DNA of 64,000 nucleotides, taken from assembly GCA_964342815.1 (NCBI GenBank), contig CAYFHS010000004.1, positions 81,338-145,337 of the forward strand, read 5' to 3'. The position numbers and the translations under genes were made by a program. Under the pieces are notes generated by a model, which was not told where the DNA came from, did not search any database, and was given only the letters and a program-made list of their open reading frames with translations. This document shows positions 13,058 through 27,963 of this stretch, one piece after another (the first letter of the stretch is position 1; every line of letters starts with the position of its first letter). This DNA comes from an uncultured archaeon (GTDB lineage Archaea; Thermoplasmatota; Penumbrarchaeia; JASLWR01).

Positions 13058-13483
13058 ATGAAAATTGGCAAATATGACTTTCCAGACGATCTGTACTATC
13101 ACAAGGAACACACCTGGGTAAAGGTAGAAGATGACCTTGTCCTTGTCGGTTTTACCGATTTCGCACAGAAATTGGCCGGAACAATCAAAAGAGTTGTGAC
13201 ATTGGAAGAAGAGGATGAGGTCAGCCAGGGAAAACCATTCGGCACCGTGAGCAGCGGTAAATGGACCGGAAAATTATATTCCCCCGTAAGTGGTGAGATC
13301 GAAGAGGTTAATGAAGACGTGGAAGACGAACCCGAATTGATCAATGATGATCCCTTTGGTGAGGGGTGGATCGTAAAGGTTTCACCCAGCGACCTCGATG
13401 CCGAACTTGGTAATTTGCTGAAAGCAGGACCAGAGTTAGTGGCACACATTAAAAAAGAGATTGCTGAGAAGGTAAAAAAATAG
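13058..13483 (+). CDS. gcvH: Glycine cleavage H-like lipoyl-carrier protein
   Basis: YYHKEHTWVKVE, GFTDFAQ, lipoyl-Lys context TVSSGKWTGKLYSPVSG, INDDPFGEGWIVKV. No gcvP or gcvT nearby. Confidence 0.9.
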   Translation: MKIGKYDFPDDLYYHKEHTWVKVEDDLVLVGFTDFAQKLAGTIKRVVTLEEEDEVSQGKPFGTVSSGKWTGKLYSPVSGEIEEVNEDVEDEPELINDDPFGEGWIVKVSPSDLDAELGNLLKAGPELVAHIKKEIAEKVKK

Positions 13484-13500: not shown

Positions 13501-14355
13501 TCACCCGTAGAGATTTTTCCAATCCCTCGACGATGAGTTTGTGTTTTGACTGCGGTTTTGGCTAGGGGCAGTTCTTGATCTTAAGGCAGTCTTTCGTTTT
13601 ATGGTAACCCTTCCGGGACCAACGCCCTTTATGCAGTCCAGACAGCTTTTTACGTCGAGTTTTTCCAACCATAATTTCATCTTTGGGGGCTTCATCATTT
13701 CAAGATAATGATAGTCGCCGCTGGATAGTATATTTATATCTCGATCTTGGAAGAATTTGGCCTTAATTGAATCGATCTTGTCCACGTTCCATATCTCAAC
13801 GGCGTCGATATCCAGATAGGGCGGGATAAATCCTAGCTGCGACACCAGGCTGAAACCCCTGTCGAGATGGGCCGCAACAGCTAATCCCTGAAAATTATGA
13901 ATCATATTCACAAGTTCATCTATTGATATGTCCAAGGGTATGGAAAGCATTATCTCTTCTTCCCCTATCACTGAACCCTGACGGTCTACTTTCAACTGGC
14001 TTCCGAATTGACGGGGATCGTTCTTGATTTTAGTGAATTGGGGTCTTACGGACCTGTAGAAATCATTCAGCGAAATTATATCCGGAAAATAACCCAGCAG
14101 ATGTATTTCCTCTGAACTCTGCAGCTCGATTCCGGGAATAAATAAAACGTTCTTTTCCCTAGCATAAGCCTCGAATGCACTGCAGTTGTGAACTGAATTG
14201 TGGTCGGTGATGGAAAAGACGTCAATATCCAAACTCATTATCTTTTTCACTACCTCGGGAGGTGTCATCCTGTCTTCAGCACAGGGAGAAAGTGCCGAAT
14301 GCATGTGCAGGTCACAGGAGTACGGGACCAACTGAGGAGAACGTCGTTGCATCAT
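13501..14355 (-). CDS. PHP-domain metal-dependent phosphoesterase
   Basis: DLHMHSALSPCA, ITDHNS, PGIEL, EEIHLL, AAHLDR, SGDYH. Confidence 0.9.
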   Translation of the reverse strand: MMQRRSPQLVPYSCDLHMHSALSPCAEDRMTPPEVVKKIMSLDIDVFSITDHNSVHNCSAFEAYAREKNVLFIPGIELQSSEEIHLLGYFPDIISLNDFYRSVRPQFTKIKNDPRQFGSQLKVDRQGSVIGEEEIMLSIPLDISIDELVNMIHNFQGLAVAAHLDRGFSLVSQLGFIPPYLDIDAVEIWNVDKIDSIKAKFFQDRDINILSSGDYHYLEMMKPPKMKLWLEKLDVKSCLDCIKGVGPGRVTIKRKTALRSRTAPSQNRSQNTNSSSRDWKNLYG

Positions 14356-14690
14356 TCAATTCCACATTCCACAAGCTTGCCTGAAAGCTGAAACGCATTT
14401 TCCTGGCTCTTGAAAAGAGCGACATTCTCTTCATCCGCCTTTTCGATCACGTTGTATGGAACGTCATATCCATCGCAGATCACAACGGCCGGGATATTGG
14501 CCATGGATGCAACTCCGATGATGTTCATGTGGCTCTGGATGGTCAACCATATTGTATTAGGTTTCGCTTTTGCCAGAACAACGCTCAACAGGTCGCATGC
14601 ATATCCGTGAGAAACTGGAACGTCCTCATTAATAGATTTCGTATTTATATTTTCAAGTTTCAATTTTGCTATGATCTCCGCTAGAAGCAT
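14352..14690 (-). CDS. DRTGG-domain protein
   Basis: GYACDLLSVVLA, IWLTIQSHMNIIGVA, AVVICDG. Confidence 0.85.
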   Translation of the reverse strand: MLLAEIIAKLKLENINTKSINEDVPVSHGYACDLLSVVLAKAKPNTIWLTIQSHMNIIGVASMANIPAVVICDGYDVPYNVIEKADEENVALFKSQENAFQLSGKLVECGIE

Positions 14691-14835
14691 GGTTACCCTC
14701 CTCTGGGTTATAAATCTCCATTTTCACTCTCCAAACCTTAGTTCATTTGCATTATTTTTTGCTAATATTTTTACTCTTCTCTTAAGCTTAAATTCAGCGA
14801 AATATATATATAATGTGTCGAAATCTTTAACAATT

Positions 14836-15189
14836 GTGAAAATAGAAGATGTCTCAAAATTATTGAATGCGAAGATAATGCATTTACCTGCGGGCTGCAA
14901 TCCGGATATTATTCAAGTAGGAGCATCGGATATGTTGAGTAATGTTCTTTCATATATGACAAAGGATATTCTCCTGGTAACAGCCTTACTGAGCCCTCAG
15001 GTGATTAGAACTGCAGCCCTGATGGATATTCCCGCAATTGTTTTTACCGGAGGCAGATTACCTCACCATATCGTAGAGGAAGCGAAAAATACAAAAGTGG
15101 CAATTCTATCCACTTCCTACTCAACTTATAAAACTTGCGGCTTGCTCTACGTTGCAGGTCTTGGCAGTATTGAAAACGAAATTGCATAA
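14836..15189 (+). CDS. DRTGG-domain protein
   Basis: GASDMLSNVL, LLVTALLSPQVIRTAALMDIPAIVFTGG. Likely GTG start at 14836 (VKIEDVSKLLNAK) just downstream of a TATA-like run; the longer ORF-track start is probably spurious. Confidence 0.85.
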   Translation: MKIEDVSKLLNAKIMHLPAGCNPDIIQVGASDMLSNVLSYMTKDILLVTALLSPQVIRTAALMDIPAIVFTGGRLPHHIVEEAKNTKVAILSTSYSTYKTCGLLYVAGLGSIENEIA

Positions 15190-15199
15190 GAGGTAAGGC

Positions 15200-16153
15200 A
15201 TGTCCTTTAAAAAGTATAAAAAATTGGACCTGAACGGTCTGGATTCACTGCTGATCAGCGGCCAGATAAGGGATTTTATGGCGAAACCCCCCATTACGCT
15301 TCCAAGAACCGCTAAGATGCGAGAGGCAAAAGAACTGATGCGTCAGAACAGGATCTCAGGGATTCCCGTTGTGGATAAGAACGAGTGTCTAAGAGGTATA
15401 ATCTCCATCGAGGACATCATAAATGCTCTTGAGCATGACCAAATTGAGGAAACCGTCGGAAAGCACATGGAGAAGAACGTAGAATGGCTTCTCGATGACA
15501 CGGATGTTCCCACGGCCATGCAGTTCTTTACAAAATACGATTACGGCCGATATCCTGTCATAAACCGGGATATAAAGGTGGTGGGCGTAGTAACCCAGGG
15601 AGACCTTATCAATTACATTTACAGACGTATCGGAGGCATATACCTTCACAACAAGATACGGGATGAAAAACTTCACCATCGTAAACGGATTAAAAGCAAC
15701 GGTCTACAGATCCGTAATAAATCTTTTACATATAGTATCGATCTCCCGGACCTTGATCTGGCAGGTGAAGGTTCCACTCTCTTCAAAAGGTTTCTCAATG
15801 ATAACGGATTCCCAGACGATGCGACTCGACGCGCCAGCATCGCACTCTATGAGGCGGAAGTAAATGTGGTCATCCATGCAGGTGGAAAAGGCGTGATTAA
15901 GGCATATCTAGATAACAATCAGGTATATATTCTCGTAAAGGATATCGGGCCCGGTATAGACGATATAGAACTGGCAGTGCAGCCGGGCTATACCACAGCA
16001 TCTGACGAAATACGGGAAAGGGGATTCGGCGCCGGTATGGGCCTGGATAACATCAAGAGATTCACTGATAAATTGATAATCCTGTCCAGCAGTTCCGGTG
16101 TGAAGATGGAAATGGTCATTATAGCAAAAACGTCCGATGTAAAAAAAAAGTAA
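15200..16153 (+). CDS. CBS-pair protein fused to an RsbT/SpoIIAB-like (anti-sigma type) Ser/Thr kinase domain
   Basis: CBS motifs (ISGIPVVD, GRYPVI) followed by YEAEVNVVIHAGG, DIGPGI, GYTTAS and GFGAGMGL. Confidence 0.88.
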   Translation: MSFKKYKKLDLNGLDSLLISGQIRDFMAKPPITLPRTAKMREAKELMRQNRISGIPVVDKNECLRGIISIEDIINALEHDQIEETVGKHMEKNVEWLLDDTDVPTAMQFFTKYDYGRYPVINRDIKVVGVVTQGDLINYIYRRIGGIYLHNKIRDEKLHHRKRIKSNGLQIRNKSFTYSIDLPDLDLAGEGSTLFKRFLNDNGFPDDATRRASIALYEAEVNVVIHAGGKGVIKAYLDNNQVYILVKDIGPGIDDIELAVQPGYTTASDEIRERGFGAGMGLDNIKRFTDKLIILSSSSGVKMEMVIIAKTSDVKKK

Positions 16154-16167
16154 ATGTGTGACCGGAC

Positions 16168-16722
16168 ATGAGAACATTGTGCCAGCATATATTCGATCTC
16201 GTCCAGAATTCCATAAGGGCCAAAGCCAGGAGCATAAAGGTTTTGGTTGAGGAGAGAGTTACAGAAAATCTTTTCCGGATCATCATCAAAGACGACGGTC
16301 AAGGACTGACACCTGATCATCTGGCAAGAGTAAAGGATACTTTTTTCACAACCAGGTCCAGAAAGGTGCGAAACGTGGGCCTAGGTATTCCGCTCATGGA
16401 TGCAACATGCCAACGTTCCGGCGGAGAATTGAATATCGACTCCCGGCTACGAAGGGGAACCACGGTCACCGCCACCATGGAATATGATAACATAGATCGA
16501 CCCCCCTTGGGAGATATAATCGACCTATTTGCATCCCTTCTCATCTCCACGGAGGAAAACAGGGTAATATGGACTCTCGAACATATCTACGACGGGAAAA
16601 AATATTTTCTCAAGAATCGCAGTACAGGAGACGAATTGAATATCCTTACGTACGGCGAAGCAGGCGTCAAGGCAAAGCTGTTTAAACTTATCACCGTAAA
16701 GGAAGAGCAGATACACAAATAA
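16168..16722 (+). CDS. Stand-alone histidine-kinase-like ATPase (HATPase_c)
   Basis: DLVQNSIRAKA, DDGQG, FFTTR, VGLGIPL, GTTVTA. Confidence 0.88.
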   Translation: MRTLCQHIFDLVQNSIRAKARSIKVLVEERVTENLFRIIIKDDGQGLTPDHLARVKDTFFTTRSRKVRNVGLGIPLMDATCQRSGGELNIDSRLRRGTTVTATMEYDNIDRPPLGDIIDLFASLLISTEENRVIWTLEHIYDGKKYFLKNRSTGDELNILTYGEAGVKAKLFKLITVKEEQIHK

Positions 16723-16728
16723 TTCATG

Positions 16729-17661
16729 CTAGAACTCGTTTGGCATGTTCTTTATCTCACCGTAGGTGAAGACCGGTCCCTGTTTGCAGATATATGTGTG
16801 TCCGATATTGCACCTTCCGCATTTTCCTATACCGCACTTCATGCGGTTCTCGAGAGTTGTATATATCTGGTCCGGTTTCCAGCCCAGCCGCTCAAGTGCT
16901 TGGGTTATGAACTTGATGGCGATGGGGGGTCCGCAGGTAACCGCAATGGAATTCTCGGGCGGCGGCTCAATGACCTCCACCAGCTGCGGTACGAAACAGG
17001 TGAACTTGTTCGCGGTGCAGGTTTTGGTATCCGTATCCCCCGGGGTCTTCATGTTGGCGGCCATCCACCCCTCGGCGGCACTGGCTTCCACGGGCCCCTG
17101 CGGTCCGAACTTCCAGTCTATGCAGCGCCACAGCTCCAGATCTTCACGACGATCGTATTCCTCGAACTCCTCCTTGAAGGCGAAGTCGGCAGGGGTCCTG
17201 GCTCCGTAGATCAGCGTGACGTCCCCGTATTCCTTTCGGTTCTCGAGGCAAAGCACGTACTGGTAGACCGAGCGTACCGGGGATATGCCGATACCGGCAC
17301 CTATGAACACGACGTTTTTACCTTTCCAATCCTCCACGGGAAAAGAATTTCCGTAGGGACCGCGCACGCCCACCTTGTCTCCCAGCTTCAGCTCGTGCAG
17401 ACGCGCCGTTACATTTCCAACCCGCATCACCGAGAACTGCAGGATACCGTCCTCGTTGGGCAGTGAATTGATTGCAAACACGCTCTCACCCACCCCAAGT
17501 ACGCTGACGATGGTGAATTGGCCCGGTTTGTGAAGGAACTTCCTTCGTGAATCCGGATCGTCTACCTGAACGGTAAAGGTCTTGATGGGACGGCCGCCGC
17601 CGGCTTCCAGACAGATCTCCTGTACCGTGGCGATGTGTGGTTTGTATACGTTGTCAGACAT
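16729..17661 (-). CDS. flxA: FlxA/AsrB-like FAD/NAD(P)H oxidoreductase with a [2Fe-2S] cluster
   Basis: PGQF, GPYGN, GAGIGISP, CGPPIAI, MKCGIGKCGRCNIG, CKQGPVF. Confidence 0.85.
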   Translation of the reverse strand: MSDNVYKPHIATVQEICLEAGGGRPIKTFTVQVDDPDSRRKFLHKPGQFTIVSVLGVGESVFAINSLPNEDGILQFSVMRVGNVTARLHELKLGDKVGVRGPYGNSFPVEDWKGKNVVFIGAGIGISPVRSVYQYVLCLENRKEYGDVTLIYGARTPADFAFKEEFEEYDRREDLELWRCIDWKFGPQGPVEASAAEGWMAANMKTPGDTDTKTCTANKFTCFVPQLVEVIEPPPENSIAVTCGPPIAIKFITQALERLGWKPDQIYTTLENRMKCGIGKCGRCNIGHTYICKQGPVFTYGEIKNMPNEF

Positions 17662-18700
17662 TGAGAGCCACCTCCTTTGCGCTTTCCGCTACATCTTTCG
17701 CGCCTTCCGCCACTTCAATGATATCTATGTTCACCGGGCACTTGTTTATGCATCTTCCGCAGCCCACGCATGTGGTCATATCGAAGTTCCTGACCGTATA
17801 AAGAAGCTTGTGGTATACCCGGTTCCTCTGCCGGTGTTTCTTGGCCGGCCGCGGGTTGTGTCCGGAGGCGTGCAACGTATAATAGGGATACTGGCACGAG
17901 TCCCATGTTCGCTCCCTTCGCCCCTTTCCCATTGTGATGATGTCGTTTATATCGAAACAGTGACAGGTGGGGCACAGCAGGGTGCAGGTACCGCATCCCA
18001 GGCACCGCTTGGAGAAACCTTCCCAGTACTGACTGTCGAAGGTGGCCTCCAGCGCTTCGGGAAGGCCTACGATATCGAGGGACCGGGCCACGGCGGCCTC
18101 AGCCGCTTCGTGTTTTTCCTTGGCGGCCTTCGTATTCGCGGGGGCGGCATCCTCAAAAAGGTCACCGCCTGCCGACAGGATACCATCGCCTTTCTCGCCA
18201 GTGGATTCCACCAGATATCGGTCCCCGATATCGGTCCAGAGCATGTCCGCTCCCTCGCCAGATGCGGGTCCTCCTCCCATTGATATGCAGAAACAGTTCT
18301 TCTGCGGCACGTCGCAGCCCAGAGCGATTATTGTGGCCCGTTCCCGGCGCTTTCTATAGTATGGGTCGATATAATCCCATCCGAACAGCGTGTCAAGGTA
18401 TATCATGGCCTTGGCGTCGCAGGGTCTGACCCCGAAGAGGAGGATGGGTTTTTCGGACAGTTCCGGTTCCCGGTAATCCACAAATTTGTTTCCATCCGGG
18501 ACGAAATCGAACATTGTCTCGGTCTGGGGGAAGAAAACCTCCTTGGGAGGCTTGTCGGAATTACCGAAATCAGTGAGGGGAATTTCATCTATACGTCTGT
18601 AGAACATCTTGTCCCCGTCGGCCACGGGACCGTATATTTCGTGATCGGAAAGTTTCCCGAAAAGGCCGCCGAGATTTTCCTTGAGTATTGTCTTTGCCAT
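17654..18700 (-). CDS. flxB: FlxB/AsrA-like 4Fe-4S dicluster protein
   Basis: GVRPCD, CFCISMG, CLGCGTCTLLCPTCHCF, WDSC, CVGCGRCINKCPV. Confidence 0.82.
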   Translation of the reverse strand: MAKTILKENLGGLFGKLSDHEIYGPVADGDKMFYRRIDEIPLTDFGNSDKPPKEVFFPQTETMFDFVPDGNKFVDYREPELSEKPILLFGVRPCDAKAMIYLDTLFGWDYIDPYYRKRRERATIIALGCDVPQKNCFCISMGGGPASGEGADMLWTDIGDRYLVESTGEKGDGILSAGGDLFEDAAPANTKAAKEKHEAAEAAVARSLDIVGLPEALEATFDSQYWEGFSKRCLGCGTCTLLCPTCHCFDINDIITMGKGRRERTWDSCQYPYYTLHASGHNPRPAKKHRQRNRVYHKLLYTVRNFDMTTCVGCGRCINKCPVNIDIIEVAEGAKDVAESAKEVALNV

Positions 18701-18712
18701 ATTTTCGACCTC

Positions 18713-19723
18713 CTAGAGTATTTCCTCCTCGGGATCGCCCACGTCGTAGGACGAGAACATCCTGGGGTCGTCGATGTTTACACCCGGTTCCGTTTTGAAA
18801 CGATCCCAGGCTCTTTTCAGGAGGAATCGGTTGATCTTTCGAATGGGAATTCCCATTGGACAAGATCTCTCGCAGTCGCCGCAGTCCACGCATCTGCCGG
18901 CGAGATGCATGGCCCGGACCATCTGGTAATAAAGATTCTCCCTTAGCTTAACGCTAAACTCGTTCCATTTGAATGGCTTGTACTTGTCGAAGACGCACTG
19001 CTCGCAGTAACAGAGGGGACAAGCGTCGCGGCAGGCATAGCATCGGACACATCGGGACAATTCGGCGGACCAATAATCCCATCTCTCTTCCTGGGACATT
19101 TCCTCCAGATCCCTTGTATCCCCGAACTCGTCCGTTTCGGGATCCTCCACCGGCTCGCCGAATACTTCGTCGGCCACCAGTGGGTTGTGGTGTGTGCATA
19201 CCAGGCATTTTCCGGCCAGCACCCCAGCCGCCGCTACGGTCTTCTTCTTGCCTCCTGCGCTGACCGTTAGCTTCTCATCGTCCAGCTCGAATTCCGATCC
19301 CGCATCATCCCATCCCGGAAGCTCCGCGAGAACCTCTTCAAGTTTTTCCTGTGAGACTATCCCGCGGCATGTGAGGCCAATTATCTTCACCCGTTCCCTG
19401 GGCAATATATTCTCTTTCATCAACTCCACCAGGGTCTTGGAATCGCACGGTTTGACCACGATGCCAACGGGCCTGGTATCGGGTTTTTCGCCTCTTCCGG
19501 GCTTGTACTGGACCTCGTCCACCACATACCGCGTTAGATTGCTCGCGCAGGTGGGGTCAACCACCAGACTCTCAGCATCCTCCGCGTTGTATATGAACGC
19601 CGGCCGGGCTTTCGAGGAATATTTGCCTTTATCGTACCCTATGAAGTATTTCAGGTCCCCGCTCTCCAGCCACTCCCTGGCCTTGTCCCGGACAGATTTT
19701 TCTAATGTCTGATGCTCCGTCAT
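18713..19723 (-). CDS. flxC: FlxC/FdhB-like 4Fe-4S protein
   Basis: VKPCDS, CVRCYACRDACPLCYCEQC, HLAGRCVDCGDCERSCP. Confidence 0.8.
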   Translation of the reverse strand: MTEHQTLEKSVRDKAREWLESGDLKYFIGYDKGKYSSKARPAFIYNAEDAESLVVDPTCASNLTRYVVDEVQYKPGRGEKPDTRPVGIVVKPCDSKTLVELMKENILPRERVKIIGLTCRGIVSQEKLEEVLAELPGWDDAGSEFELDDEKLTVSAGGKKKTVAAAGVLAGKCLVCTHHNPLVADEVFGEPVEDPETDEFGDTRDLEEMSQEERWDYWSAELSRCVRCYACRDACPLCYCEQCVFDKYKPFKWNEFSVKLRENLYYQMVRAMHLAGRCVDCGDCERSCPMGIPIRKINRFLLKRAWDRFKTEPGVNIDDPRMFSSYDVGDPEEEIL

Positions 19724-20145
19724 TATTCATCCCCCCTGCTGAACTTTCGTTGAGGGCCCATTTCCTTGATCTTTTTCGAGAAGTTGGTGACAACTTCTGC
19801 GAACTTCGGGGCCTCCGAAGCCGATATCCAAGATATCACTAATCTTTCGGGGTCCACGCCCATCCAGTCGATGAGATCAGCTAGAAGCGTAAGTTTTCTA
19901 CGGGCGTGATAATTCCCCTCGAGGTAATGGCAGTCTCCAGGATGACATCCCGATACAAGCACGCCGTCGGCCCCTTCCTGAAATGCTTTCAGAACAAACT
20001 GGGGATTGACCCTGCTGCTGCACATCACTCTGATAATCCGCAGGTTCGTTGGATACTGCAAGCGGGAAGTGCCTGCCAGGTCCGCTCCCGTATAGGTGCA
20101 CCAGTTGCATAAGAAACCTATTATCTTTGGCTCAAACTCACTCAT
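19723..20145 (-). CDS. mvhD: MvhD/FlxD [2Fe-2S] subunit
   Basis: [39 protein letters not shown]. Confidence 0.95.
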
Positions 20146-20342
20146 TCAACCACCTCTCTGAAGGAGCGATGCGGACTCCAATTTTCGAGCAGGTGAACCC
20201 GAGTTTCTTCTTTTCCGAATTTTTTTCTTTGCGAGGGTAAGCCAGCACAGAAAATTGCACAAAGAAAAAAACTCCACTGGTTGCATAGAAATCCTATTAT
20301 CTTCGGTTCCCATTGCGAGCCTTCTCCATGTACTTCTGTCAT
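20142..20342 (-). pseudogene. Truncated mvhD paralog remnant (about 23 homologous codons, then a long hairpin)
   Basis: [14 protein letters not shown] matches the start of the adjacent mvhD. Homology ends there, and a 16-bp inverted repeat follows (arms 20217-20232 and 20259-20274). Confidence 0.7.
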
Positions 20343-23300
20343 TTAGCTCACCCCACAGAGAGAACTCTTGATAACTGAAAGGATCTGCTGATCCTTGAAT
20401 CCCTTTTGGTCGATTGCTCCCGAGCGGCAGGTCCCGGCACAGAGGCCGCAGCCCTTGCAGAGTCCGGGATTGACAAGGGCTTTGTTATTGTCTTCCATTG
20501 TAATTGCCGAATAGGGACATGCTTCCACGCAGAAACCGCATCCGCTGCACATGCTCTCGTCCACTTCCGATACCACCGCTTCGGATTCCAGATGAGATTT
20601 GGACAATATCGTACAGGCCCTGGCTGCTGCCGCTTCAGCCTGTGCTATACTCTCGTCTATGAACTTCGGGGAATGTGCGAGACCGGCCAGGAAGACTCCA
20701 GCAGTGGCAAAGTCCACGGGCCTCAATTTCATATGGGCCTCTAGGAAGAAACCGTCCTTGGTCACAGGTAGTTTAAGCATCTGGGAGAGTTCTTTTGTAC
20801 CGTTCTGGGGTAGGATAGCATTCGAGAGTACGAGCATATCCGGTTTCAGGCGTACCTCTTTCTTGATTATGGGATCATAGACCGAAACGCTCAACCCCTC
20901 CTCATCGCTAACAAGAGGCTTGTGTTCATCGTCATATCTGATGAATATGATGCCATTCTCCGCCGCTTCCTTGTAGTATTTTTCACGGAATCCGTAGGTT
21001 CTTATATCCTTGTAGAGGACGTAAACGTTGGTATCCGGACTTTCCTCCTTTATCTTAAGAGCATTCTTTACGGCACCGGCGCAGCACACCCTGCTGCAGT
21101 ATGTTCTCTCCTCGTTCCTGGATCCTACGCACTGGATCATGACGACGTTCTCAGCTTTGAAGGTTCCGGCTGAAAGCTGTTCTTCAAGCTGTTTTCTCGT
21201 AAAAACACGTTCATTCTTTCCGTAGAGGTATTCTGTGGGAATGTACTCCTTTCCTCCCGTGGCGATCACAACGATGCCGTGGGACAATTCTCTCTCGTCA
21301 CCTTTACCCCCCGGGATTACAGTGGTCTTGAAATTCCCGATGAAGCCGTCAATATTCATAATTTTAGTCGCGGTGAACAATTCTACCTTGTCGTGTTCTT
21401 TGACACGGGAAATGAGAGAGTGCAGGAATTCCTGGGGATCATCATCCCCAAGCATGAAGCGCGTGTTCTTTGCGGCACCTCCCAGTTCATCGTCCCTCTC
21501 CACCAGGAAGGTCTCGTAACCCTGATCCGCCAGTTCCAGAGCGCTGGTCATTCCAGCGATCCCACCACCTATCACCAGTGCCCGTTGAACAACATCAAGC
21601 TCAACCCTTTTCAGCGGTTCCAGATAGGCTGCCTTGTTCACTGCCATCCTGACCAGGTCCTTCGCCTTGGCCGTGGCCTTGTCCTTCTCTTTCATGTGGA
21701 CCCATGAACACTGCTCGCGTATGTTGGCGAACTCGAAGAGATTTGGATTCAATCCGGCTTCCCTGATGGTGCTCTGGAACAGGGGCTCGTGGGTTCTGGG
21801 TGTGCAGGCGGAAACAACCACCCTGTTCAGATCGTGTTCCTTGATGAGTTCCAGCATCTTATTCTGTGTGTCCTGGGAACAGGTATAGATAAATTCGTCC
21901 GCCCTGGCCACGTACGGCAGTGTTCTTGAGTATTCCACCACTGAGGGCACATTCACCACCGAGCCGATATTGATCCCGCAGTGACAGACGAATACGCCGA
22001 TCCTCGGTGTCTGTCCCGTGAAGTCCCTTTCCGGAGGATATTCCTTCACTGTAACGAGAGTATCCCGCTCGGACGAAATTATATTGGAAGCCTTTGCCGC
22101 GGCACCGCTGGCATCGGCCACTGTCATGGGAATGTCCTTGGGTGCGGAAGTAGCCCCCGTGACGAATATCCCGTTTCTCGAAGTGTCGAGAGGCGCGAAA
22201 GTGTCTGTCTTCACGAAGCCGTATTCATTGAGGTCGATCCCGAGTTTCTCACTGAGACCTTCCAGGGATTTCGATGCCTCGAGAGCGCAGGACAGCACCA
22301 CCACGTCGAATTCCTTTTCTTTTTTTACCTCATCCTCGAGGTAGTTGATGATCAGATTATTAGTTGCTGGATTTTCCTCGATACTTGGAACCCTGCACCT
22401 TGTGAATTTGATACCGTGTTCGTGCTCTGCCCGGATATAATAATCGTCGAATTCCTTGCCGAAGGCTCGGATATCCATGAAGAAAATGTGGGCCTCGAGA
22501 CCTGGTGAATGTTCCTGGGCGATGATGGCTTCCTTGATAGCATACATACAGCAAACACTGGAACAGTACTCGTTGGCGTTCTCGTCGCGAGAACCGACGC
22601 ACTGCAGGAATGCTATTTTTTTGGGTGGCTGCCCGTCCGATGGGCGGATCACGTGGCCCTCAGTGGGCCCTGTGGCACTGAGATATCTCTCGAGTTCCAT
22701 GCTGTTCAAAACGTTCTTGAATCTACCGTATCCCAGCTCTTCCTTCTTTTTCGGGTCGTACAGGTCGAATCCAGTGGACACCACTACTGCCCCCACATTT
22801 ATCTCTTCTCGCCTGTCCTCCTGGTCGTATTCTATTGCACCCGCCTTGCAGAACTCAGCGCAGGTTCGGCAGTTTCCAGTCCTATAGTAAACGCATTTTT
22901 CCTTGTCTATGACGGGAATCTTAGGGATGGCCTGTGGAAAGGGAATGTATATGGGATTTCTGCAATCGAGCAGTTCGTTGTACTCTGATAGAATGGGGTC
23001 GATCTTGTTCCCGCTGATCCGCTCGACCTTTTTCTGGGTGAACCGGGTGGTGGGGCATATGGATGCACACGCACCGCAGGTAATACACACGTCGGAAAGC
23101 GCCATGTAGGGGGTTCCCAATTCCCGGTCGATACCCCTTCCCTGGAAATTGATGGCGTAGCTCCCCATTTTCTCACACATGCGTACGCATAAACCGCACA
23201 GGATACAGTTGTCGTCCTTGTTCTTGAAACGGGTCTCACCGATTTTGTACTGCTCCGCCAGTTCCAAAAGTACCAGTTCCTCCGGGCAGCGGGAAAGGAG

Positions 23301-23573
23301 CAATTCCACCGTCATTCGACGGCTGGAGTTTACCATATCAGTATCTGTGAATATCTTTGAGCCTTCAACAGCGGGCATGGTGCAGGCCGTTACCAGCTTG
23401 TTACCATTTCTCTGTTCTAGTTCCACGACGCACAGGCGACAGGCTCCGTAGGGGGATACTGCCTTGTAGTTACACAGGGTGGGTATCCTTATTTTATTGT
23501 CATCGGCAACTTCCAATATTGTCTGACCTTCCTCGGCCTCATATGGATTTCCGTCTATCTGAATGCTGACCAT
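20343..23573 (-). CDS. hdrA: Fusion: NuoG/HydA-type N-terminal Fe-S domain + remainder of HdrA + second HdrA module
   Basis: N-terminal PTLC..GACRLC..LVTAC [2Fe-2S] and CILCGLCVRMC / CITCGACASICP. HdrA motifs follow: PIYIPFPQAIP, ELER, QCVGSRD, CSSVCCMY, GVFVCHCG, ACTPRTHE, IREQCSW, GGGIAG, a second QCVGSR/CSRVCC, and a C-terminal 2x[4Fe-4S]. Confidence 0.9.
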   Translation of the reverse strand: MVSIQIDGNPYEAEEGQTILEVADDNKIRIPTLCNYKAVSPYGACRLCVVELEQRNGNKLVTACTMPAVEGSKIFTDTDMVNSSRRMTVELLLSRCPEELVLLELAEQYKIGETRFKNKDDNCILCGLCVRMCEKMGSYAINFQGRGIDRELGTPYMALSDVCITCGACASICPTTRFTQKKVERISGNKIDPILSEYNELLDCRNPIYIPFPQAIPKIPVIDKEKCVYYRTGNCRTCAEFCKAGAIEYDQEDRREEINVGAVVVSTGFDLYDPKKKEELGYGRFKNVLNSMELERYLSATGPTEGHVIRPSDGQPPKKIAFLQCVGSRDENANEYCSSVCCMYAIKEAIIAQEHSPGLEAHIFFMDIRAFGKEFDDYYIRAEHEHGIKFTRCRVPSIEENPATNNLIINYLEDEVKKEKEFDVVVLSCALEASKSLEGLSEKLGIDLNEYGFVKTDTFAPLDTSRNGIFVTGATSAPKDIPMTVADASGAAAKASNIISSERDTLVTVKEYPPERDFTGQTPRIGVFVCHCGINIGSVVNVPSVVEYSRTLPYVARADEFIYTCSQDTQNKMLELIKEHDLNRVVVSACTPRTHEPLFQSTIREAGLNPNLFEFANIREQCSWVHMKEKDKATAKAKDLVRMAVNKAAYLEPLKRVELDVVQRALVIGGGIAGMTSALELADQGYETFLVERDDELGGAAKNTRFMLGDDDPQEFLHSLISRVKEHDKVELFTATKIMNIDGFIGNFKTTVIPGGKGDERELSHGIVVIATGGKEYIPTEYLYGKNERVFTRKQLEEQLSAGTFKAENVVMIQCVGSRNEERTYCSRVCCAGAVKNALKIKEESPDTNVYVLYKDIRTYGFREKYYKEAAENGIIFIRYDDEHKPLVSDEEGLSVSVYDPIIKKEVRLKPDMLVLSNAILPQNGTKELSQMLKLPVTKDGFFLEAHMKLRPVDFATAGVFLAGLAHSPKFIDESIAQAEAAAARACTILSKSHLESEAVVSEVDESMCSGCGFCVEACPYSAITMEDNNKALVNPGLCKGCGLCAGTCRSGAIDQKGFKDQQILSVIKSSLCGVS

Positions 23574-25439
23574 TTAGTCCACCCCCGTTTCAATATCGAC
23601 TGCACTGAATCTGCAAACCGTATGGCACGAACCGCATTTCGTGCAGACGTCCTGGTCGATCACATGCGGTTTTTTCCTTTCTCCGGAAATTGCCTTTACC
23701 GGACACTTCCGGGCGCACAGAGTGCAGCCCATACAATAGTCCGGTTTTATCTTATACCTGATCAGGTCCTTGCAGACCTTGGCTGGGCAGGCATGCCGCT
23801 CTATGTGGGCCAGGTATTCGTCCTTGAAATATCTCAGCGTGCTCAATACCGGATTCGATGAAAAATTCCCCAGACCGCACATGGAAGTATTCTTGATATA
23901 CCTGCTCAATTCCACCAGTAACTGCAGGTCTTCCTCGGAACCGACCCCTGCACAGATATCATCCAGTATCTCCAGCATTCGGGCGTTCCCTTCTCTGCAG
24001 GAAGTACACTTTCCACAGGATTCGTCCACGGAAAATGCCGTGAAATACCTGGCGACATCCACCATGCAGGTGTCCTCATCCATGACGATCATACCGCCTG
24101 AACCCATTATGGAACCCAAGCGGGATAGATTGGCATAATCTATTGCTACATCCAGAAAGTCTTCCGGAACACATCCTCCCGAGGGACCTCCGGTCTGCAC
24201 GGCTTTGAACTTTCGATTATTGGAAATTCCGCCACCTATTGAAAAGATGATCTCACGCAGCGTGGTCCCGAATGGAATTTCCACGAGGCCGATATTGTTT
24301 ATTTTACCCACTAGGGAAAATATCTTCGTCCCCTTGCTCGATAAAGTACCCGTACCGGAAAACCATTCACTGCCCCGGTTTATTATATGTCGCACGTTGG
24401 CCCAGGTCTCGACGTTGTTGATACATGTCGGATAACCCCAAAGACCGGATTGGGCGGGATAAGGAGGCCGTTGTCTTGGTTCTCCCTCTCTCCCCTCTAT
24501 GGAAGCTATGAGAGCGGTTTCCTCTCCGCATACGAATGCACCCGCACCCTGATAAATTTCAAGATCGAAATTAAAACCAGTCCCCAGAATATTATCGCCC
24601 AGCAGTCCCATTTCCTTAGCTTCGGCCATGGCGATTCTCACGTTATGAAGAGCCAGAGGATACTCGGCTCTTAGATAGATATATCCGTGATTCGTACCCA
24701 TGGCATAGGCACCTATGAGCATCCCTTCGATAATGCAATGCGGATTGCCTTCAAGAAGACTCCGGTCCATGTAGGCTCCGGGATCTCCCTCGTCCGCATT
24801 ACAGATTACGTACCGTTTCTCACCGGGAGCATTACTCATGAACTCCCACTTCAGTCCCGTTGGAAACCCAGCCCCACCCCTGCCTTTGAGACCGGCATCT
24901 TTCATTTCTTTTATAACCTCTTCCGGTGTCATCTCTCCCAATACCTTTGATATGGCGGAGTAGCCCCCCAGTGCCAGGTAATCTTCGAAACTAGTTGGAT
25001 CGATGAGTCCATTATCCGCAAAGATAGTTCGTTTCTGGTTTTTGTAAAAGGGTATGTTGTGCTCGTGGATTATAAGACCCCCTGTGGCGGGATCCTTGTA
25101 TAGGAATTCTTCGATGATTTCATCATTGATTACGGTTTCCGTGACTATCCGGGGGACCTGATCCGGTTTTACATTGGGATAGAAATAATTTTCCGGCTTG
25201 ATTAGAACGATGGGGCCCTTCTCACAGAAGCCATGGCATCCGGTTATCCTGAGATCGGTGGAATCCGAAATCCCTTGTTTGACCAGCTCTTCCTTGAACG
25301 CCTCAACAATGGAGTCCGATTTTGACGCCTTGCACCCCGTTCCACCGCAAATCGTTATCACCTTTTTCTCTGTATCCCGCTGTTCAATGACGAACTTTCG
25401 GAGATTAGCCACATCCCGGGGTTTTTTCAACATTAGCAT
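23574..25439 (-). CDS. nuoF: NuoF/HydB-like NADH-binding FMN subunit with N-terminal [2Fe-2S] and C-terminal 2x[4Fe-4S]
   Basis: CGGTGC..GCHGFCEKGP, GRGGAGFPTG, NADEGDPGAYMDR, GAFVCGEETAL, SCGKCTSCREG, CMGCTLCARKCP, CTKCGSCHTVC. Confidence 0.93.
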   Translation of the reverse strand: MLMLKKPRDVANLRKFVIEQRDTEKKVITICGGTGCKASKSDSIVEAFKEELVKQGISDSTDLRITGCHGFCEKGPIVLIKPENYFYPNVKPDQVPRIVTETVINDEIIEEFLYKDPATGGLIIHEHNIPFYKNQKRTIFADNGLIDPTSFEDYLALGGYSAISKVLGEMTPEEVIKEMKDAGLKGRGGAGFPTGLKWEFMSNAPGEKRYVICNADEGDPGAYMDRSLLEGNPHCIIEGMLIGAYAMGTNHGYIYLRAEYPLALHNVRIAMAEAKEMGLLGDNILGTGFNFDLEIYQGAGAFVCGEETALIASIEGREGEPRQRPPYPAQSGLWGYPTCINNVETWANVRHIINRGSEWFSGTGTLSSKGTKIFSLVGKINNIGLVEIPFGTTLREIIFSIGGGISNNRKFKAVQTGGPSGGCVPEDFLDVAIDYANLSRLGSIMGSGGMIVMDEDTCMVDVARYFTAFSVDESCGKCTSCREGNARMLEILDDICAGVGSEEDLQLLVELSRYIKNTSMCGLGNFSSNPVLSTLRYFKDEYLAHIERHACPAKVCKDLIRYKIKPDYCMGCTLCARKCPVKAISGERKKPHVIDQDVCTKCGSCHTVCRFSAVDIETGVD

Positions 25440-26294
25440 TTATTCGACCCCCTTGAGAGGTGTCATAATCTCTTCAACCTTGGGAACGGTGATTTTTCCA
25501 TGCAGTTCATCGTTCACCATTATTATCGGTCCCAGAGCACAGGCGCCGACGCAATTCACCACTTCCAGGGAGAAGATTCCATCCTCCGTATCGGCCATGA
25601 CCGCTTTTACAGCATCGGTTATGGAACGGGCTCCCCGCACATGGCAGGCAGTACCAAGGCAAATCTTGATGTGATATTCTCCCCTCATCTCCATGCTGAA
25701 TGACTTGTAGAACGTGGCAACGCGATATATCTTTGATAGCGGAATTTCAAGTCGGTAAGAAAGATATTTGAGGACATCCCCGGGAAGATATCTGAATATT
25801 TCGTTGACATCCAGCAGTATCTGTATCAGTGGTGCCTCAAAGGTGGCATATTTTTCGATTAAATCGTCTATTGTTTTCTTTTCCCTGACTTTCGGGGCTT
25901 CTGTCGGTTTCTCGGGGATTTGAACCTGAAGTGAGACTGGACAGTTCTCGACACATGTTCCGCAGCCTGTACATTTATCCACATCCACCGAGCGTGCCTT
26001 TCTGTCTACGAGAACGGTAAAGTTACCTTCTTTTCCTACGACTCCTTGGAGTTCTGAATATGTTAGAAGTTCTATGTTGGGATGTCTCCCTACGTCAACC
26101 ATTTTGGGTGACATGATACACATGGAGCAGTCGTTAGTAGGAAAAGTTTTGTCCAACTGAGCCATGGTTCCTCCGATGCTGGGCCCGGATTCAAGAAGAT
26201 ACACCTTGAATCCGGAATTGGCCAGGTCCAGGGCGGACTGCATGCCTCCGATACCTGCTCCCACCACAAGAACTGATCCTACTTTTTTATCCAT
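25440..26294 (-). CDS. Fusion: HdrA N-terminal FAD-binding segment + first ferredoxin half + NuoE/HydC [2Fe-2S] domain
   Basis: VVGAGIGG, MAQLDKTFPTNDCSMC and CTGCGTCVENCP, then VATFYKSF, ICLGTACHVRGA and NCVGACALGP. ATG 26294 follows GGAGGAGG. Confidence 0.9.
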   Translation of the reverse strand: MDKKVGSVLVVGAGIGGMQSALDLANSGFKVYLLESGPSIGGTMAQLDKTFPTNDCSMCIMSPKMVDVGRHPNIELLTYSELQGVVGKEGNFTVLVDRKARSVDVDKCTGCGTCVENCPVSLQVQIPEKPTEAPKVREKKTIDDLIEKYATFEAPLIQILLDVNEIFRYLPGDVLKYLSYRLEIPLSKIYRVATFYKSFSMEMRGEYHIKICLGTACHVRGARSITDAVKAVMADTEDGIFSLEVVNCVGACALGPIIMVNDELHGKITVPKVEEIMTPLKGVE

Positions 26295-26295
26295 A

Positions 26296-27207
26296 CTATT
26301 CGCCTCCTCCCTTGAGCCCATCAAGCTTCTTAAGGAGTGGTCTCACCTTGACCTGATTCTTATTAACTGCAAGATCCTTACGAGGGTGGAATCCCATGGC
26401 AAGGCCCAGGAGCTGTGGATAATATAGTACTGGAATATCGTATTTGACATCGGCCTTTGCACCGATGGTGGGTTGATATTCGTCGTACATAATATCACAG
26501 AACGGGCAGATCACTATCAACGCATCCACTTCTGCCTCTTTTAGATGATCCAACTTCTGTTTTACCATATCCATGGACGTATTCTCTGAAACTGCCAAAA
26601 TGCCTCCCCCGCAACATTGAAGTTTATCCCTGTATGATACCGATTCGGCCCCGGTGACCTCGATGAGTTTGTCAAGGCTCTCAGGAAAGTAAGGACTGTC
26701 GAAGTGGTCGAACAATTCGCTTGGCTTTGTGTAATGGCAGCCGTAATGAGGTGCGACCTTCAAGCCCGTTAAGGGTTCGGTAACAGCTTCTTTCATCTTG
26801 TCTAAACCGATCTCCTCGAAAAGGAAGCGGGAGAAATGTTTCACCTTCACATTTCCTTTGAATTCATAACCCATGTCGGCCAATTCCTCGTTGACCTTCT
26901 TCAACTCCTCTTCGTGGTTCATGTCCGCGTAGTACTTTGCCGCTTTTGTGAGGTGGCCTGTGCAGGCGCTGCACAGGGTGAGGATATCCAGTCCTTCTGC
27001 TTCTGCGAGAGCGAGATTGCGTGCCGCCACTGCCATGGCGGAATGATGATGTACGCCATCTATCGGGAAACCGCAGCATGAAAAACCGGGAATGTCCACG
27101 AGTTCGATCCCAAGTTTCGAGGCGATTTTTCTTGTAGAGAGCTCATAATTGAAACCCCTGACTGATACCGTGCATCCCAGATAAAGGGCGAACCTGTGTT
27201 CACTCAT
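26296..27207 (-). CDS. hdrB: Heterodisulfide reductase subunit B
   Basis: YLGCT, SCCG, LCSAC, HYGCHY, QCCGGG, CPFC. ATG 27207. Confidence 0.92.
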   Translation of the reverse strand: MSEHRFALYLGCTVSVRGFNYELSTRKIASKLGIELVDIPGFSCCGFPIDGVHHHSAMAVAARNLALAEAEGLDILTLCSACTGHLTKAAKYYADMNHEEELKKVNEELADMGYEFKGNVKVKHFSRFLFEEIGLDKMKEAVTEPLTGLKVAPHYGCHYTKPSELFDHFDSPYFPESLDKLIEVTGAESVSYRDKLQCCGGGILAVSENTSMDMVKQKLDHLKEAEVDALIVICPFCDIMYDEYQPTIGAKADVKYDIPVLYYPQLLGLAMGFHPRKDLAVNKNQVKVRPLLKKLDGLKGGGE

Positions 27208-27739
27208 CGCTGCCACCCTCCTTGATCGCGTCATGAATGCCCGCTTTTTTCAGTAAGTCTTTAATTTCCGAGATTTTGAATTCAAGTTCCGGTATTCCCT
27301 TTTTCGCCCGTACCGTGTTCTCGAACTCGCTGACCTCAAGTAGACGGCCGAATTTTTCCAGCAGGTCGACGGCGGCTCCCATTGCCTTTGGCAGATATCC
27401 CTCTCGTACGGCAATGTTTCTGAGAGCGACCATCAAACTCGTTATCTTGACGTCTCTAGGACACCGTTCGTAACAACTGTAACACCCTGAACAGAGCCAG
27501 ATGAACTCACTGCTCAGTACTTCTTCCTTCATACCCAGCAGGACCATCCGGATGATCCTTCGAGGATTGTAGCTATCGTTGACGGATAGTACCGGACATA
27601 TGGCGGCGCAGGTTCCGCACGCAAAGCATTTTCTAATGTTCTCTCCGCCGGGTTCCAGAGCCACCAGATTCTTGAAATTAGGATCCAGGTCATCCATTGA
27701 AACAGATTCTTCTGTTGACGAATCTTCTATCTTTGACAT
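27200..27739 (-). CDS. hdrC: Heterodisulfide reductase subunit C
   Basis: CFACGTCAAICP, WLCSGCYSCYERCPRDV. ATG 27739 follows GTGAGG. Confidence 0.93.
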   Translation of the reverse strand: MSKIEDSSTEESVSMDDLDPNFKNLVALEPGGENIRKCFACGTCAAICPVLSVNDSYNPRRIIRMVLLGMKEEVLSSEFIWLCSGCYSCYERCPRDVKITSLMVALRNIAVREGYLPKAMGAAVDLLEKFGRLLEVSEFENTVRAKKGIPELEFKISEIKDLLKKAGIHDAIKEGGSDE

Positions 27740-27963
27740 TATTATTCCCTCACTTCTTGTGATTATTTTATCACTTTTATAAATTATGCTAAAATTCAGT
27801 CTCAACCCGATTCCAAATTTCACTTATTATATCCTTATATCGAATAATCAGGAAAATATACAAACTCAAACAAACCCGTGTTCCCCTTGATTATGCGATA
27901 TTAATTTTCACATATTTCATATGATTTTGGTCATAATTCTGCAAGATTTTTATACCTCTTTGC

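Follow-up and report, generated by a model that had tools for sequence, protein, structure and literature searches.

An HdrA flavoprotein split within its inserted ferredoxin by a Bfu-type NADH module in an uncultured Thermoplasmatota archaeon

Introduction

Flavin-based electron bifurcation allows strict anaerobes to live near the thermodynamic limit. Here we describe an operon in which components of two bifurcating systems, HdrA and Bfu, are joined by gene fusions. It lies on the minus strand, at 27823-16729, of a 64,000-nucleotide stretch of contig CAYFHS010000004.1 (the window) from an uncultured archaeon of the Thermoplasmatota (GenBank assembly GCA_964342815.1). The gene order is hdrC, hdrB, the N-terminal piece of hdrA fused to nuoE, nuoF, the N-terminal part of nuoG fused to the rest of hdrA and to a second hdrA, mvhD, and flxCBA.

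The closest characterized system is BamDEFGHI from the class II benzoyl-CoA reductase (BCRII) of Geobacter metallireducens, Bam[(BC)2DEFGHI]2. There, NADH and reduced ferredoxin are confurcated by BamGHI, a module of the HydBC type (bioRxiv 10.64898/2026.04.10.717634). The electrons pass from BamI through the C-terminal ferredoxin of the fused-dimer HdrA BamE and then through BamF (MvhD) to the bifurcating FAD, from which the low-potential branch leads via the inserted ferredoxin to BamBC and the high-potential branch via the HdrBC-like BamD. It was not until 2026 that an enzyme, BCRII, was shown to chain HydBC-type and HdrA-type bifurcation modules. Among the Bfu classes listed by Schut et al. 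(2022; PMC9304861), Bam-Bfu is the only one with HdrA.

Three other systems are related to the operon in particular aspects. In HdrL, a large protein resembling HdrA, the insert is a GltD/NfnB-like NAD(P)H module (Strittmatter, 2009, PMC2702500; Sedano-Nunez, 2018, PMC5947623). For FlxABCD-HdrABC of Desulfovibrio vulgaris, an NADH:disulfide and ferredoxin bifurcation was proposed (Ramos et al., 2015, cited in PMC5947623). Finally, nuoEFG-mvhD-hdrA units are reported to stand side by side in Desulfotignum phosphitoxidans, though not as fusions (PMC4046663).

Results

Operon structure and gene content

Domains were called with Pfam and NCBIfam and by alignment to solved structures (PDB), with HdrA of M. 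thermolithotrophicus (5odc_A) as the HdrA reference. The N-terminal piece of HdrA module 1 is designated A1N, the rest of this module A1C, and HdrA module 2 A2. The features, all on the minus strand, are as follows.

27200..27823, minus strand: hdrC, 207 aa from GTG (an alternative ATG at 27739 gives 179 aa), two CxxCxxCxxxC motifs, Pfam Fer4_8
26296..27234, minus strand: hdrB, two PF02754 (CCG) domains, two full CX..CCG..CxxC motifs (10 Cys)
25440-26324 (25440-26294 from ATG), minus strand: A1N::nuoE fusion gene, product P0001 of 284-294 aa
25926..26276, minus strand: A1N in P0001, residues 17-133 aligned with 5odc_A 146-260, E 2.6e-43
25449..25877, minus strand: NuoE/HydC/BfuC part of P0001, residues 150-292, PF01257 E 1.9e-38, 7p5h_C 3.4e-37, 8a6t_C 2.4e-34
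23574..25439, minus strand: nuoF of HydB/BfuB type, product P0003 of 621 aa, 7t2r_B E 6.6e-245 over residues 28-614
20343-23573, minus strand: nuoG-N::hdrA fusion gene, product P0002 of 1076 aa
23004..23573, minus strand: NuoG-N/BfuA part of P0002, residues 1-190, PF13510 and Fer4_7, best match WorA 9mqx_A E 2.4e-31
22029..22997, minus strand: A1C in P0002, residues 196-447 aligned with 5odc_A 262-511
20343..22010, minus strand: A2 in P0002, residues 522-753 aligned with 5odc_A 3-235 and 910-1069 with 485-647
20146..20342, minus strand: hdrA-mvhD spacer of 197 nt with a ~12-codon copy of the mvhD 5' end at 20279-20309 and a T-run
19723..20145, minus strand: mvhD/flxD, PF02662 E 6.9e-56
18713..19723, minus strand: flxC-like iron-sulfur (Fe-S) protein gene, FrhB_FdhB_C-like plus 2x[4Fe-4S], Pfam
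17654..18700, minus strand: flxB-like Fe-S protein gene of the AsrA/sulfhydrogenase-beta type, PF17179 (NF040829 and TIGR02910 under cut-off)
16729..17661, minus strand: flxA-like gene for a FAD/NAD(P)H protein with [2Fe-2S], AsrB/sulfhydrogenase-gamma type, PF00175, PF10418 and PF00970

The nine genes are packed tightly: hdrB and the gene for P0001 are 1 nt apart, the genes for P0001, P0003, and P0002 follow one another with 0 nt between them, and mvhD-flxCBA are closely packed as well. Gene order and domain content agree with a preliminary description made from the sequence alone. Two further points of that description also hold: the assignment of NuoF to the bifurcating HydB/Bfu type, given the end-to-end match to 7t2r_B, and the lack of an H-cluster, NiFe, or Mo/W catalytic subunit, as Pfam detects no H-cluster, NiFe, Mo/W-pterin, formate dehydrogenase, or other catalytic domain among the operon genes. 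The “mvhD remnant” listed there as a gene is reduced to the ~12 codons in the uncalled 197-nt spacer, since the spacer open reading frame of 66 codons is called as a gene in none of the three gene-called assemblies. Judging by the repeated mvhD 5' end, this spacer is probably a recombination scar. It also holds a T-run, GTTTTTTTCTTT on the coding strand at 20261-20272, a possible partial archaeal terminator that is, however, crossed by RNA-library contigs.

The HdrB motifs correspond to two non-cubane [4Fe-4S] sites, both intact. With scores of 285.7 for HdrB (TIGR03288, cut-off 345) and 118.9 for HdrC (TIGR03290, cut-off 160), HdrBC stay below the equivalog level for the coenzyme B-coenzyme M (CoB-CoM) heterodisulfide reductase.

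All three components of a Bfu module can be recognized. The NuoE part of P0001 has its [2Fe-2S] Cys ligands and aligns as BfuC with HydC chains. P0003 has the BfuB domain set (PF01257, PF01512, PF10589, and two Fer4), comprising an N-terminal Trx-like [2Fe-2S] domain, the FMN/NADH site (ADEGDPGAYMD), an N3-type [4Fe-4S] site, and a C-terminal 2x[4Fe-4S] domain, and it aligns also with the HydB, NfnB, and WorB chains of solved structures. NuoG-N carries one [2Fe-2S] site (C34, C45, C48, C64) and two [4Fe-4S] motifs (C123-C133, C163-C173), and aligns as BfuA with the N-termini of WorA and HydA. The cysteines of the BfuC and BfuA parts are invariant.

The split in HdrA

HdrA module 1 is cut right behind the first CxxCxxCxxxCP motif of its inserted ferredoxin (P0001 C118-C128, P129). 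It resumes at about residue 193 of P0002 with a connector of the EF-x-AIYIPFPQA type, followed by the second Cys motif. The break within the inserted ferredoxin had been noted before, with CTGCGTCVENCP taken as the end of the gene; in fact CTGCGTCVENCP ends only the HdrA portion, and the gene continues into NuoE. The linkers comprise ~20 residues, rich in Pro, Lys, and Glu, on the way into NuoE and ~17 residues on the way out of NuoG-N.

The ligands of the flavoprotein are preserved on both sides of the break. A1N contains the FAD-binding GxGxxG at the start of the thioredoxin reductase (TrxR) domain, the segment LDKTFPTNDCxxC (K59, C66, C69), and the first Cys motif of the inserted ferredoxin; these residues, with P129, are invariant across 23 homologues. 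A1C provides C227, C235, C238, and C242 of the second inserted-ferredoxin half, C325, C337, C341, and C342 of the TrxR-domain cluster, and K347, and its ligands are invariant in 120 sequences. A2 consists of an N-terminal domain (C530, C532, C565, C590, C622), a TrxR domain with K836, and a C-terminal 2x[4Fe-4S] ferredoxin domain. Module 1 thus has the features of HdrA (K347, the four TrxR-domain cysteines, and P0001 C66/C69), and module 2 keeps K836 and the cluster cysteines.

The two modules are complementary. Module 1 has the CxxC pair and an inserted ferredoxin but neither an N-terminal domain nor a C-terminal ferredoxin; module 2, which supplies the N- and C-terminal ferredoxin domains, is missing both the inserted ferredoxin and the LDKTFPTNDCxxC segment. 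By its domain content the tandem HdrA is a pseudo-dimer in which every accessory domain is present once, distributed over two genes and two modules; the same has been described for BamE. Its kinship with tandem HdrA proteins of the HdrL type, proposed earlier, is supported, the cores being 64-68% identical.

In solved HdrA, flavin N5 is contacted by Lys409 of the motif CCMYAMK (PMC6405883). In the alignment with 5odc_A, Lys409 corresponds to K347, and K836 has the same CC-x4-K spacing in module 2. Among 120 relatives of the split, tandem, and HdrL types, in which all Fe-S and flavin ligands are conserved without exception or almost so, K347 is present in 120, K836 in 119, and C622 in 119; both N5 lysines occur also in Bam-like proteins. 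The preliminary description was right that LDKTFP is confined to module 1, but its argument from the lysine of this motif does not stand, as the N5 lysine is found in both modules. What distinguishes module 2 is, from the alignments, the missing CxxC pair and inserted ferredoxin, the lysine being retained. Sequence alone gives no verdict on whether the second FAD is non-bifurcating, because Gln768 of BamE maps three residues upstream of the retained module-2 lysine.

In a 2x[4Fe-4S] ferredoxin fold each cluster is ligated by cysteines of both motifs. The clusters of the inserted ferredoxin hence need cysteines from both halves, and the two polypeptides must co-fold. A complex was predicted for residues 1-520 of P0002 with A1N::NuoE, using alignments, two [4Fe-4S] clusters, and FAD. 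The score was 0.85 (0.85, 0.84, and 0.86 in individual runs), compared with 0.02 for the best of three controls; 58 of 80 solved complexes attained this mark, as did 2 of 110 mismatched pairs. At least 97% of contacts were common to the runs, with a partner predicted local distance difference test (pLDDT) value of at least 85. In the model, A1N residues 4-127 are packed against A1C and contribute to the TrxR domain by strand exchange; partner residues 8-11, for instance, lie with P0002 262-266. The first Cys motif is in contact with P0002 204-249, and the ferredoxin-like domain of NuoG-N (132-172) sits at the interface with the A1N::NuoE chain. The HdrA halves are thus predicted to reassemble, the outcome that the earlier description had made its check; as the complex divides a fold that has already been solved, the score measures likeness to solved HdrA and is not proof of binding.

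Authenticity and possible expression

The operon is neither a chance product nor an assembly chimera. An identical P0002 in the same gene context is found in three independent ENA assemblies, one of them from a Tara Oceans run, and a 9.9-kb stretch of the locus is present in at least eight non-source marine or seawater metagenome runs from at least six studies; the suspicion of a chimeric assembly, raised in advance, is thereby refuted. The DNA contigs of X4 and X5 leave 25332-26099 uncovered and are uninformative. Short contigs with 100% identity to hdrC, hdrB, nuoF, hdrA, mvhD/flxC, and flxB occur in two metatranscriptome runs of one study, including a contig that spans the spacer and the mvhD start (20127-20465). 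These contigs are a weak sign of expression.

Distribution

The split architecture is not rare: marine, sediment, and soil metagenomes contain it in many uncultured bacteria and archaea. The best 120 database clusters for P0001 are all A1N::NuoE fusions, falling into two length classes of ~285 aa and ~417 aa, and 92 of the best 120 clusters for P0002 carry the NuoG-N fusion, with core identity of 52-71%. The best named matches of both proteins are from Thermoplasmata archaea. In the same phylum, 20 of 400 other sampled genomes, from eight families, encode a full-length fused A1N::NuoE. In the species-level genome collection, 15 of 80 kept loci have the full split order, usually hdrC-hdrB-A1N::nuoE-nuoF-nuoG::hdrA-mvhD, with mvhD after the fused hdrA in 12. 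Their hosts belong to Planctomycetota, Acidobacteriota, Desulfobacterota, Spirochaetota, and Altiarchaeales, together with another archaeon and a metagenome-assembled genome (MAG) labelled Bacteroides.

The same archaeal genome has a second split copy, of a single-HdrA type, on contig C15 (G000:C15:43000-52000, L103). It encodes A1N plus the HdrA N-terminal domain fused to NuoE (418 aa), NuoF, and NuoG-N fused to the C-terminal part of HdrA (597 aa), followed by mvhD-flxCBA-mvhD. True HdrL paralogues and other HdrA paralogues are encoded elsewhere in the genome. Besides the C15 copy, split HdrA is accompanied by mvhD-flxCBA in G077, G011, and G089, with differing gene orders.

The preliminary description named as a refuting outcome that the architecture be both common and already characterized. 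With more than 90 clusters per fusion it is indeed common; no description of it was found in full-text literature searches, outside which the review of HdrA modules by Appel et al. (2021, BBA) lay. The statement that no characterized archaeal example is known is likewise supported, none having been found in the literature searched.

In several bacterial loci NuoF is longer, with 1016-1059 aa (L001:5819-8998, L007:3114-6182, L010:3188-6238, L012:3012-6110, and L018:5859-8954). The added C-terminal part closes with a motif of the RCLRCD type, like that of GltD/NfnB proteins, which suggests an extra NADPH site similar to that of the Stn/Nfn-Bfu types.

Apparent exchange of the Bfu module

Three forms of the tandem HdrA frame can be distinguished: an uninterrupted one of ~1000 aa, HdrL with the GltD-like insert, and the one split by Bfu. 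In the HdrA-core tree the three forms are intermixed inside the archaeal clade. A single origin of the split form is not supported on this tree, as starred branches force at least five type changes. Because the break point is identical in all lineages, exchange is a more natural explanation than repeated invention. An example is provided by two metagenomic proteins, the split-type P0009 and the HdrL P0026, which are 91% identical over 845 residues from the second Cys motif onwards and unrelated before it; this pattern points to a very recent module swap or gene conversion between paralogues.

Comparison of the window with the corresponding locus of the congener G077 gives a mosaic of identities:

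A1N: 92-98% in the first 80 residues, 84% over the whole piece
NuoE: 45-72%
NuoF: ~59%
NuoG-N: 50-68% up to residue 120, increasing to 72-82% by the junction
Remaining HdrA: 85-100% for the most part (range 68-100%), with A1C at 82% and A2 at 92% overall
MvhD: 96%; FlxA: 94%

The trees conflict in the same way. In the A2 tree, the second HdrA modules of the window and G077 are sisters with support of 100. In the NuoF tree, the window groups with L092 and L100, and G077 joins the single-HdrA type, made up of G011 and the C15 copy from the window's genome, with support of 99. A clade of the window and G077 NuoF proteins is rejected by the approximately unbiased (AU) test at p 4.8e-5, for a group that was named after the tree had been seen. 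The identity mosaic and the tree conflict together imply that the Bfu module was exchanged inside a conserved HdrA frame, where it appears to behave as a recombination cassette.

Companion cassette and neighbouring genes

Upstream, the operon is flanked by an M18 peptidase gene and a ParB-like gene. Beside flxA, a cassette of five genes (13501..16722, mixed strands) was identified by Pfam:

16168-16722, plus strand: HATPase
15200-16153, plus strand: CBS+HATPase_c_2
14671-15189, plus strand: DRTGG
14352-14690, minus strand: DRTGG/HprK_N
13501-14355, minus strand: PHP

These five genes recur between nuoF and nuoG::hdrA in the bacterial loci L003:6182-9004, L005:6214-8996, L007:6179-9004, L010:6254-8995, and L012:6475-8997, and adjoin the split operon in the archaeal loci L099 and L100. 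The cassette looks like a conserved, putative regulator of the Bfu module.

Adjoining the PHP gene, a gene for a GcvH-like lipoyl carrier was found at 13058-13483 (plus strand). GcvH-like genes occur near tandem hdrA in L061, L015, and L016, only three of ~100 other loci, a weak association. By analogy with the role of LbpA for sHdr, the GcvH-like protein could be a thiol/disulfide partner of HdrB.

The only AOR-family gene of the genome, encoding 716 aa, is located on another contig (G000:C34:17800-19950; L105:6801-8951) and is followed by genes for two large HEAT-repeat proteins.

Discussion

Proposed mechanism

We consider it somewhat probable (roughly 0.6) that the operon encodes one soluble Fe-S flavoprotein complex linking NAD(H), ferredoxin, and a disulfide/thiol couple, with no other catalytic substrate and with Bfu on the low-potential branch. 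The Bfu module (NuoE, NuoF, and NuoG-N) is tethered from both sides to the inserted ferredoxin of HdrA by the in-frame fusions. This ferredoxin provides the low-potential exit from the bifurcating FAD in canonical HdrA as well as in BamE. The cluster chain of BfuA would then most likely replace free ferredoxin on the low-potential branch of the HdrA FAD, because Bfu is fused on both sides to the low-potential exit domain and the NAD(P)H module of HdrL is placed in the same domain. HdrBC, with its two intact non-cubane sites, may form the high-potential branch to a disulfide, and MvhD-FlxCBA may serve as a third, NAD(P)H-linked port.

This wiring could support a serial two-stage bifurcation in the forward direction or confurcation in reverse. 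Speculatively, the forward reaction would be ~3 NADH + 2 RSSR + 2 Fd(ox) -> 3 NAD+ + 4 RSH + 2 Fd(red). In the serial model the disulfide spent per reduced ferredoxin would be doubled compared with Flx-Hdr, which would permit the use of weaker disulfides or of a very reduced ferredoxin pool. The suggestion in the preliminary description that two kinds of bifurcating centre act in one complex has an experimental precedent in BCRII; its other part, that Flx belongs to the same complex, is suggested by recurrent synteny (five Thermoplasmatota loci) and by the RNA contigs crossing the spacer.

Several observations weigh against placing Bfu at the low-potential port of a single three-port complex. 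(i) In BCRII the Bfu module feeds HdrA via the C-terminal ferredoxin domain and MvhD, not via the inserted ferredoxin, and linkers of ~17-20 residues are long enough for a BCRII-like geometry as well. (ii) The close relatives L092 and L100 have no adjacent mvhD or flx, and therefore the three-port model is not general. (iii) The 197-nt spacer with its T-run and recombination scar separates hdrA from mvhD-flx. (iv) HdrB and HdrC score under the CoB-CoM equivalog cut-offs. (v) The RNA contigs are short, unstranded, and from a single study, with possible DNA carry-over, so that neither operon structure nor expression level can be claimed from them.

Alternative explanations

A serious alternative, though a rather unlikely one, is a BCRII-like wiring. 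Here Bfu would confurcate NADH and reduced ferredoxin and pass the electrons, at mid potential, through the C-terminal ferredoxin of A2 and MvhD to the bifurcating FAD; the inserted ferredoxin would be the exit to free ferredoxin or to some other low-potential acceptor, and the fusions would act solely as assembly tethers. Such a path has been resolved experimentally in Bam[(BC)2DEFGHI]2 (bioRxiv 10.64898/2026.04.10.717634), the frequent position of mvhD behind the fused hdrA (12 of 15 loci of the genome collection) is in line with it, and the linkers are long and apparently flexible. However, it sits badly with a break that lies exactly within the inserted ferredoxin in every lineage, and with the NAD(P)H module of HdrL, which occupies the same domain ~30 residues further on. 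The predicted model, in which the NuoG-N ferredoxin-like domain is located at the A1N::NuoE interface, also speaks against it. Moreover, if NADH, ferredoxin, and disulfide are the only substrates, a BCRII-like wiring would give zero net change in ferredoxin, and the adjacent mvhD that it uses is absent from L092 and L100.

Another scenario, somewhat less likely still, is that two enzymes are encoded in one string of genes. Hdr-Bfu would be complete alone, and mvhD-flxCBA, joined to it by recombination, would serve another HdrA of the genome. The spacer with its mvhD 5' scar and T-run, the minimal operons of L092 and L100 without flx, and the presence of several other HdrA/HdrL paralogues in the genome are consistent with this scenario. 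On the other hand, the junction is conserved in the congener G077 (MvhD 96%, FlxA 94%), split HdrA adjoins flx in four further loci with varying gene orders, and RNA-library contigs traverse the spacer, all of which speaks against it.

Both remaining explanations are very improbable. A chimeric assembly, or an hdrA pseudogene broken by insertion of nuoEFG, is suggested by nothing beyond the unusual layout and is contradicted by the identical locus in three independent assemblies, its presence in the non-source runs (at least eight, from at least six studies), the more than 90 relatives per fusion with a common break point and all ligands kept, and the intact reading frames of abutting genes. 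An electron-delivery module of an archaeal class II benzoyl-CoA reductase, for which one could cite the representation of all BamDEFGHI component types, is rejected, as no BamB was found in the window or in the 89%-complete genome: the sole AOR-family gene (contig C34) has no BamC or Hdr neighbours and is closest to Pyrococcus AOR (E 6e-58), with BamB as its weakest match (E 1.6e-23), and HdrB has both non-cubane sites, unlike most BamD.

With the single complex and its low-potential Bfu as the preferred reading, a more general and more tentative picture can be drawn. The loop of the inserted ferredoxin in tandem HdrA may be a plug-in socket at which recombination exchanges entire NAD(P)H modules within an unchanged HdrA frame, so that it holds the Bfu cassette, the GltD-like domain, or nothing. 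The Bfu form would then be a hard-wired serial double-bifurcation machine attached to the low-potential branch, with a wiring opposite to that of BCRII and a changed gear ratio between disulfide and ferredoxin. We offer this picture as a possibility, in full knowledge that it may well prove wrong.

Significance

The split form hard-wires both bifurcation modules by gene fusion, with no tungsten or other catalytic subunit. If the proposed mechanism is true, these operons represent a widespread, so far unnamed class of NADH/ferredoxin/disulfide redox balancers, and their fixed covalent geometry would make them a good structural subject for the coupling of two bifurcation sites. The swapping of NADH modules in a conserved flavoprotein frame provides a clear natural example of modular redox-enzyme evolution. 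Current annotations such as “NAD(P)H-dependent oxidoreductase subunit E”, “FAD-dependent oxidoreductase”, and “heterodisulfide reductase subunit A” mask the unit.

Comparison with known systems

With HdrL the operon shares the tandem HdrA frame, with the core identity of 64-68%, and the location of an NAD(P)H module within the inserted ferredoxin; HdrL genes are also often followed by mvhD-flxCBA. The insert of HdrL is a single GltD-like domain in one polypeptide, situated ~30 residues further on after FPQAVPxKxTI, whereas that of the operon is a three-gene Bfu module. Membership in HdrL was rejected, as Pfam finds no PF14691/GltD domain in P0001 or P0002 and the protein is split by NuoE-NuoF-NuoG-N.

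In D. vulgaris, flxA/B/C/D-type genes likewise stand beside hdrABC-type genes with no hydrogenase, a likeness in domain composition only. HdrA of D. vulgaris is single and canonical and is accompanied by no Bfu module, whereas HdrA of the operon is non-canonical. The methanogen MvhAGD-HdrABC complex (5ODC, 8RVU) shares the HdrA fold and all cofactor sites, with ~45-60% identity as estimated from aligned blocks; in the methanogen enzyme, however, complete HdrA forms a homodimer, the donor is a hydrogenase, and the acceptor is free ferredoxin.

The Bfu enzymes NiFe-HydABCSL (7T2R), HydABC (8A6T/7P5H), NfnABC (9N5U), and WorABCSL (9MQX) have BfuB, BfuC, and a small BfuA in common with the operon, end to end and with all cluster motifs. 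In the operon, unlike these enzymes, the place of the third partner is taken by an HdrA flavoprotein to which BfuA and BfuC are covalently fused.

BamDEFGHI and the operon both consist of a Bfu-type NADH and ferredoxin module, a tandem HdrA, an MvhD adaptor, and an HdrBC-like output. They also have in common a small BfuA with one [2Fe-2S] and two [4Fe-4S] and a CxxC pair in module 1 only. With constant offsets (9 in L073 and 21 in L076), Cys59/Cys62 of BamE map to C66/C69 of P0001, and Lys280 to K347 of P0002. In the sequence comparison BCRII was represented by the locus L073:5152-15860 of a Desulfobacterales MAG, where the genes of a complete bamB-to-bamI-like cluster encode AOR-family, HdrC-like, tandem HdrA, MvhD, NuoE, NuoF, and NuoG-N proteins. 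Its identity to the operon is 56% for NuoF, 59% for A1N, 48% for A2, and 48% for MvhD, and in both the NuoF and the A2 trees it is nested among split-type sequences.

The differences from Bam concern both composition and layout. Bam is built of separate subunits, whereas NuoE and NuoG-N of the operon are fused to HdrA halves cut within the inserted ferredoxin. The operon has no BamBC tungsten module, its HdrB and HdrC are separate, MvhD is short and lacks selenocysteine, a Flx module is attached, and HdrB, in contrast to most BamD proteins, retains both non-cubane sites. The wiring probably differs as well, with Bfu at the low-potential port. In summary, the coupling of Hdr and Bfu is already known from Bam; the split and fused layout was found in none of the literature searched, and new here are the apparent exchange of the cassette, the travelling five-gene companion, and the N5 lysine in both modules.

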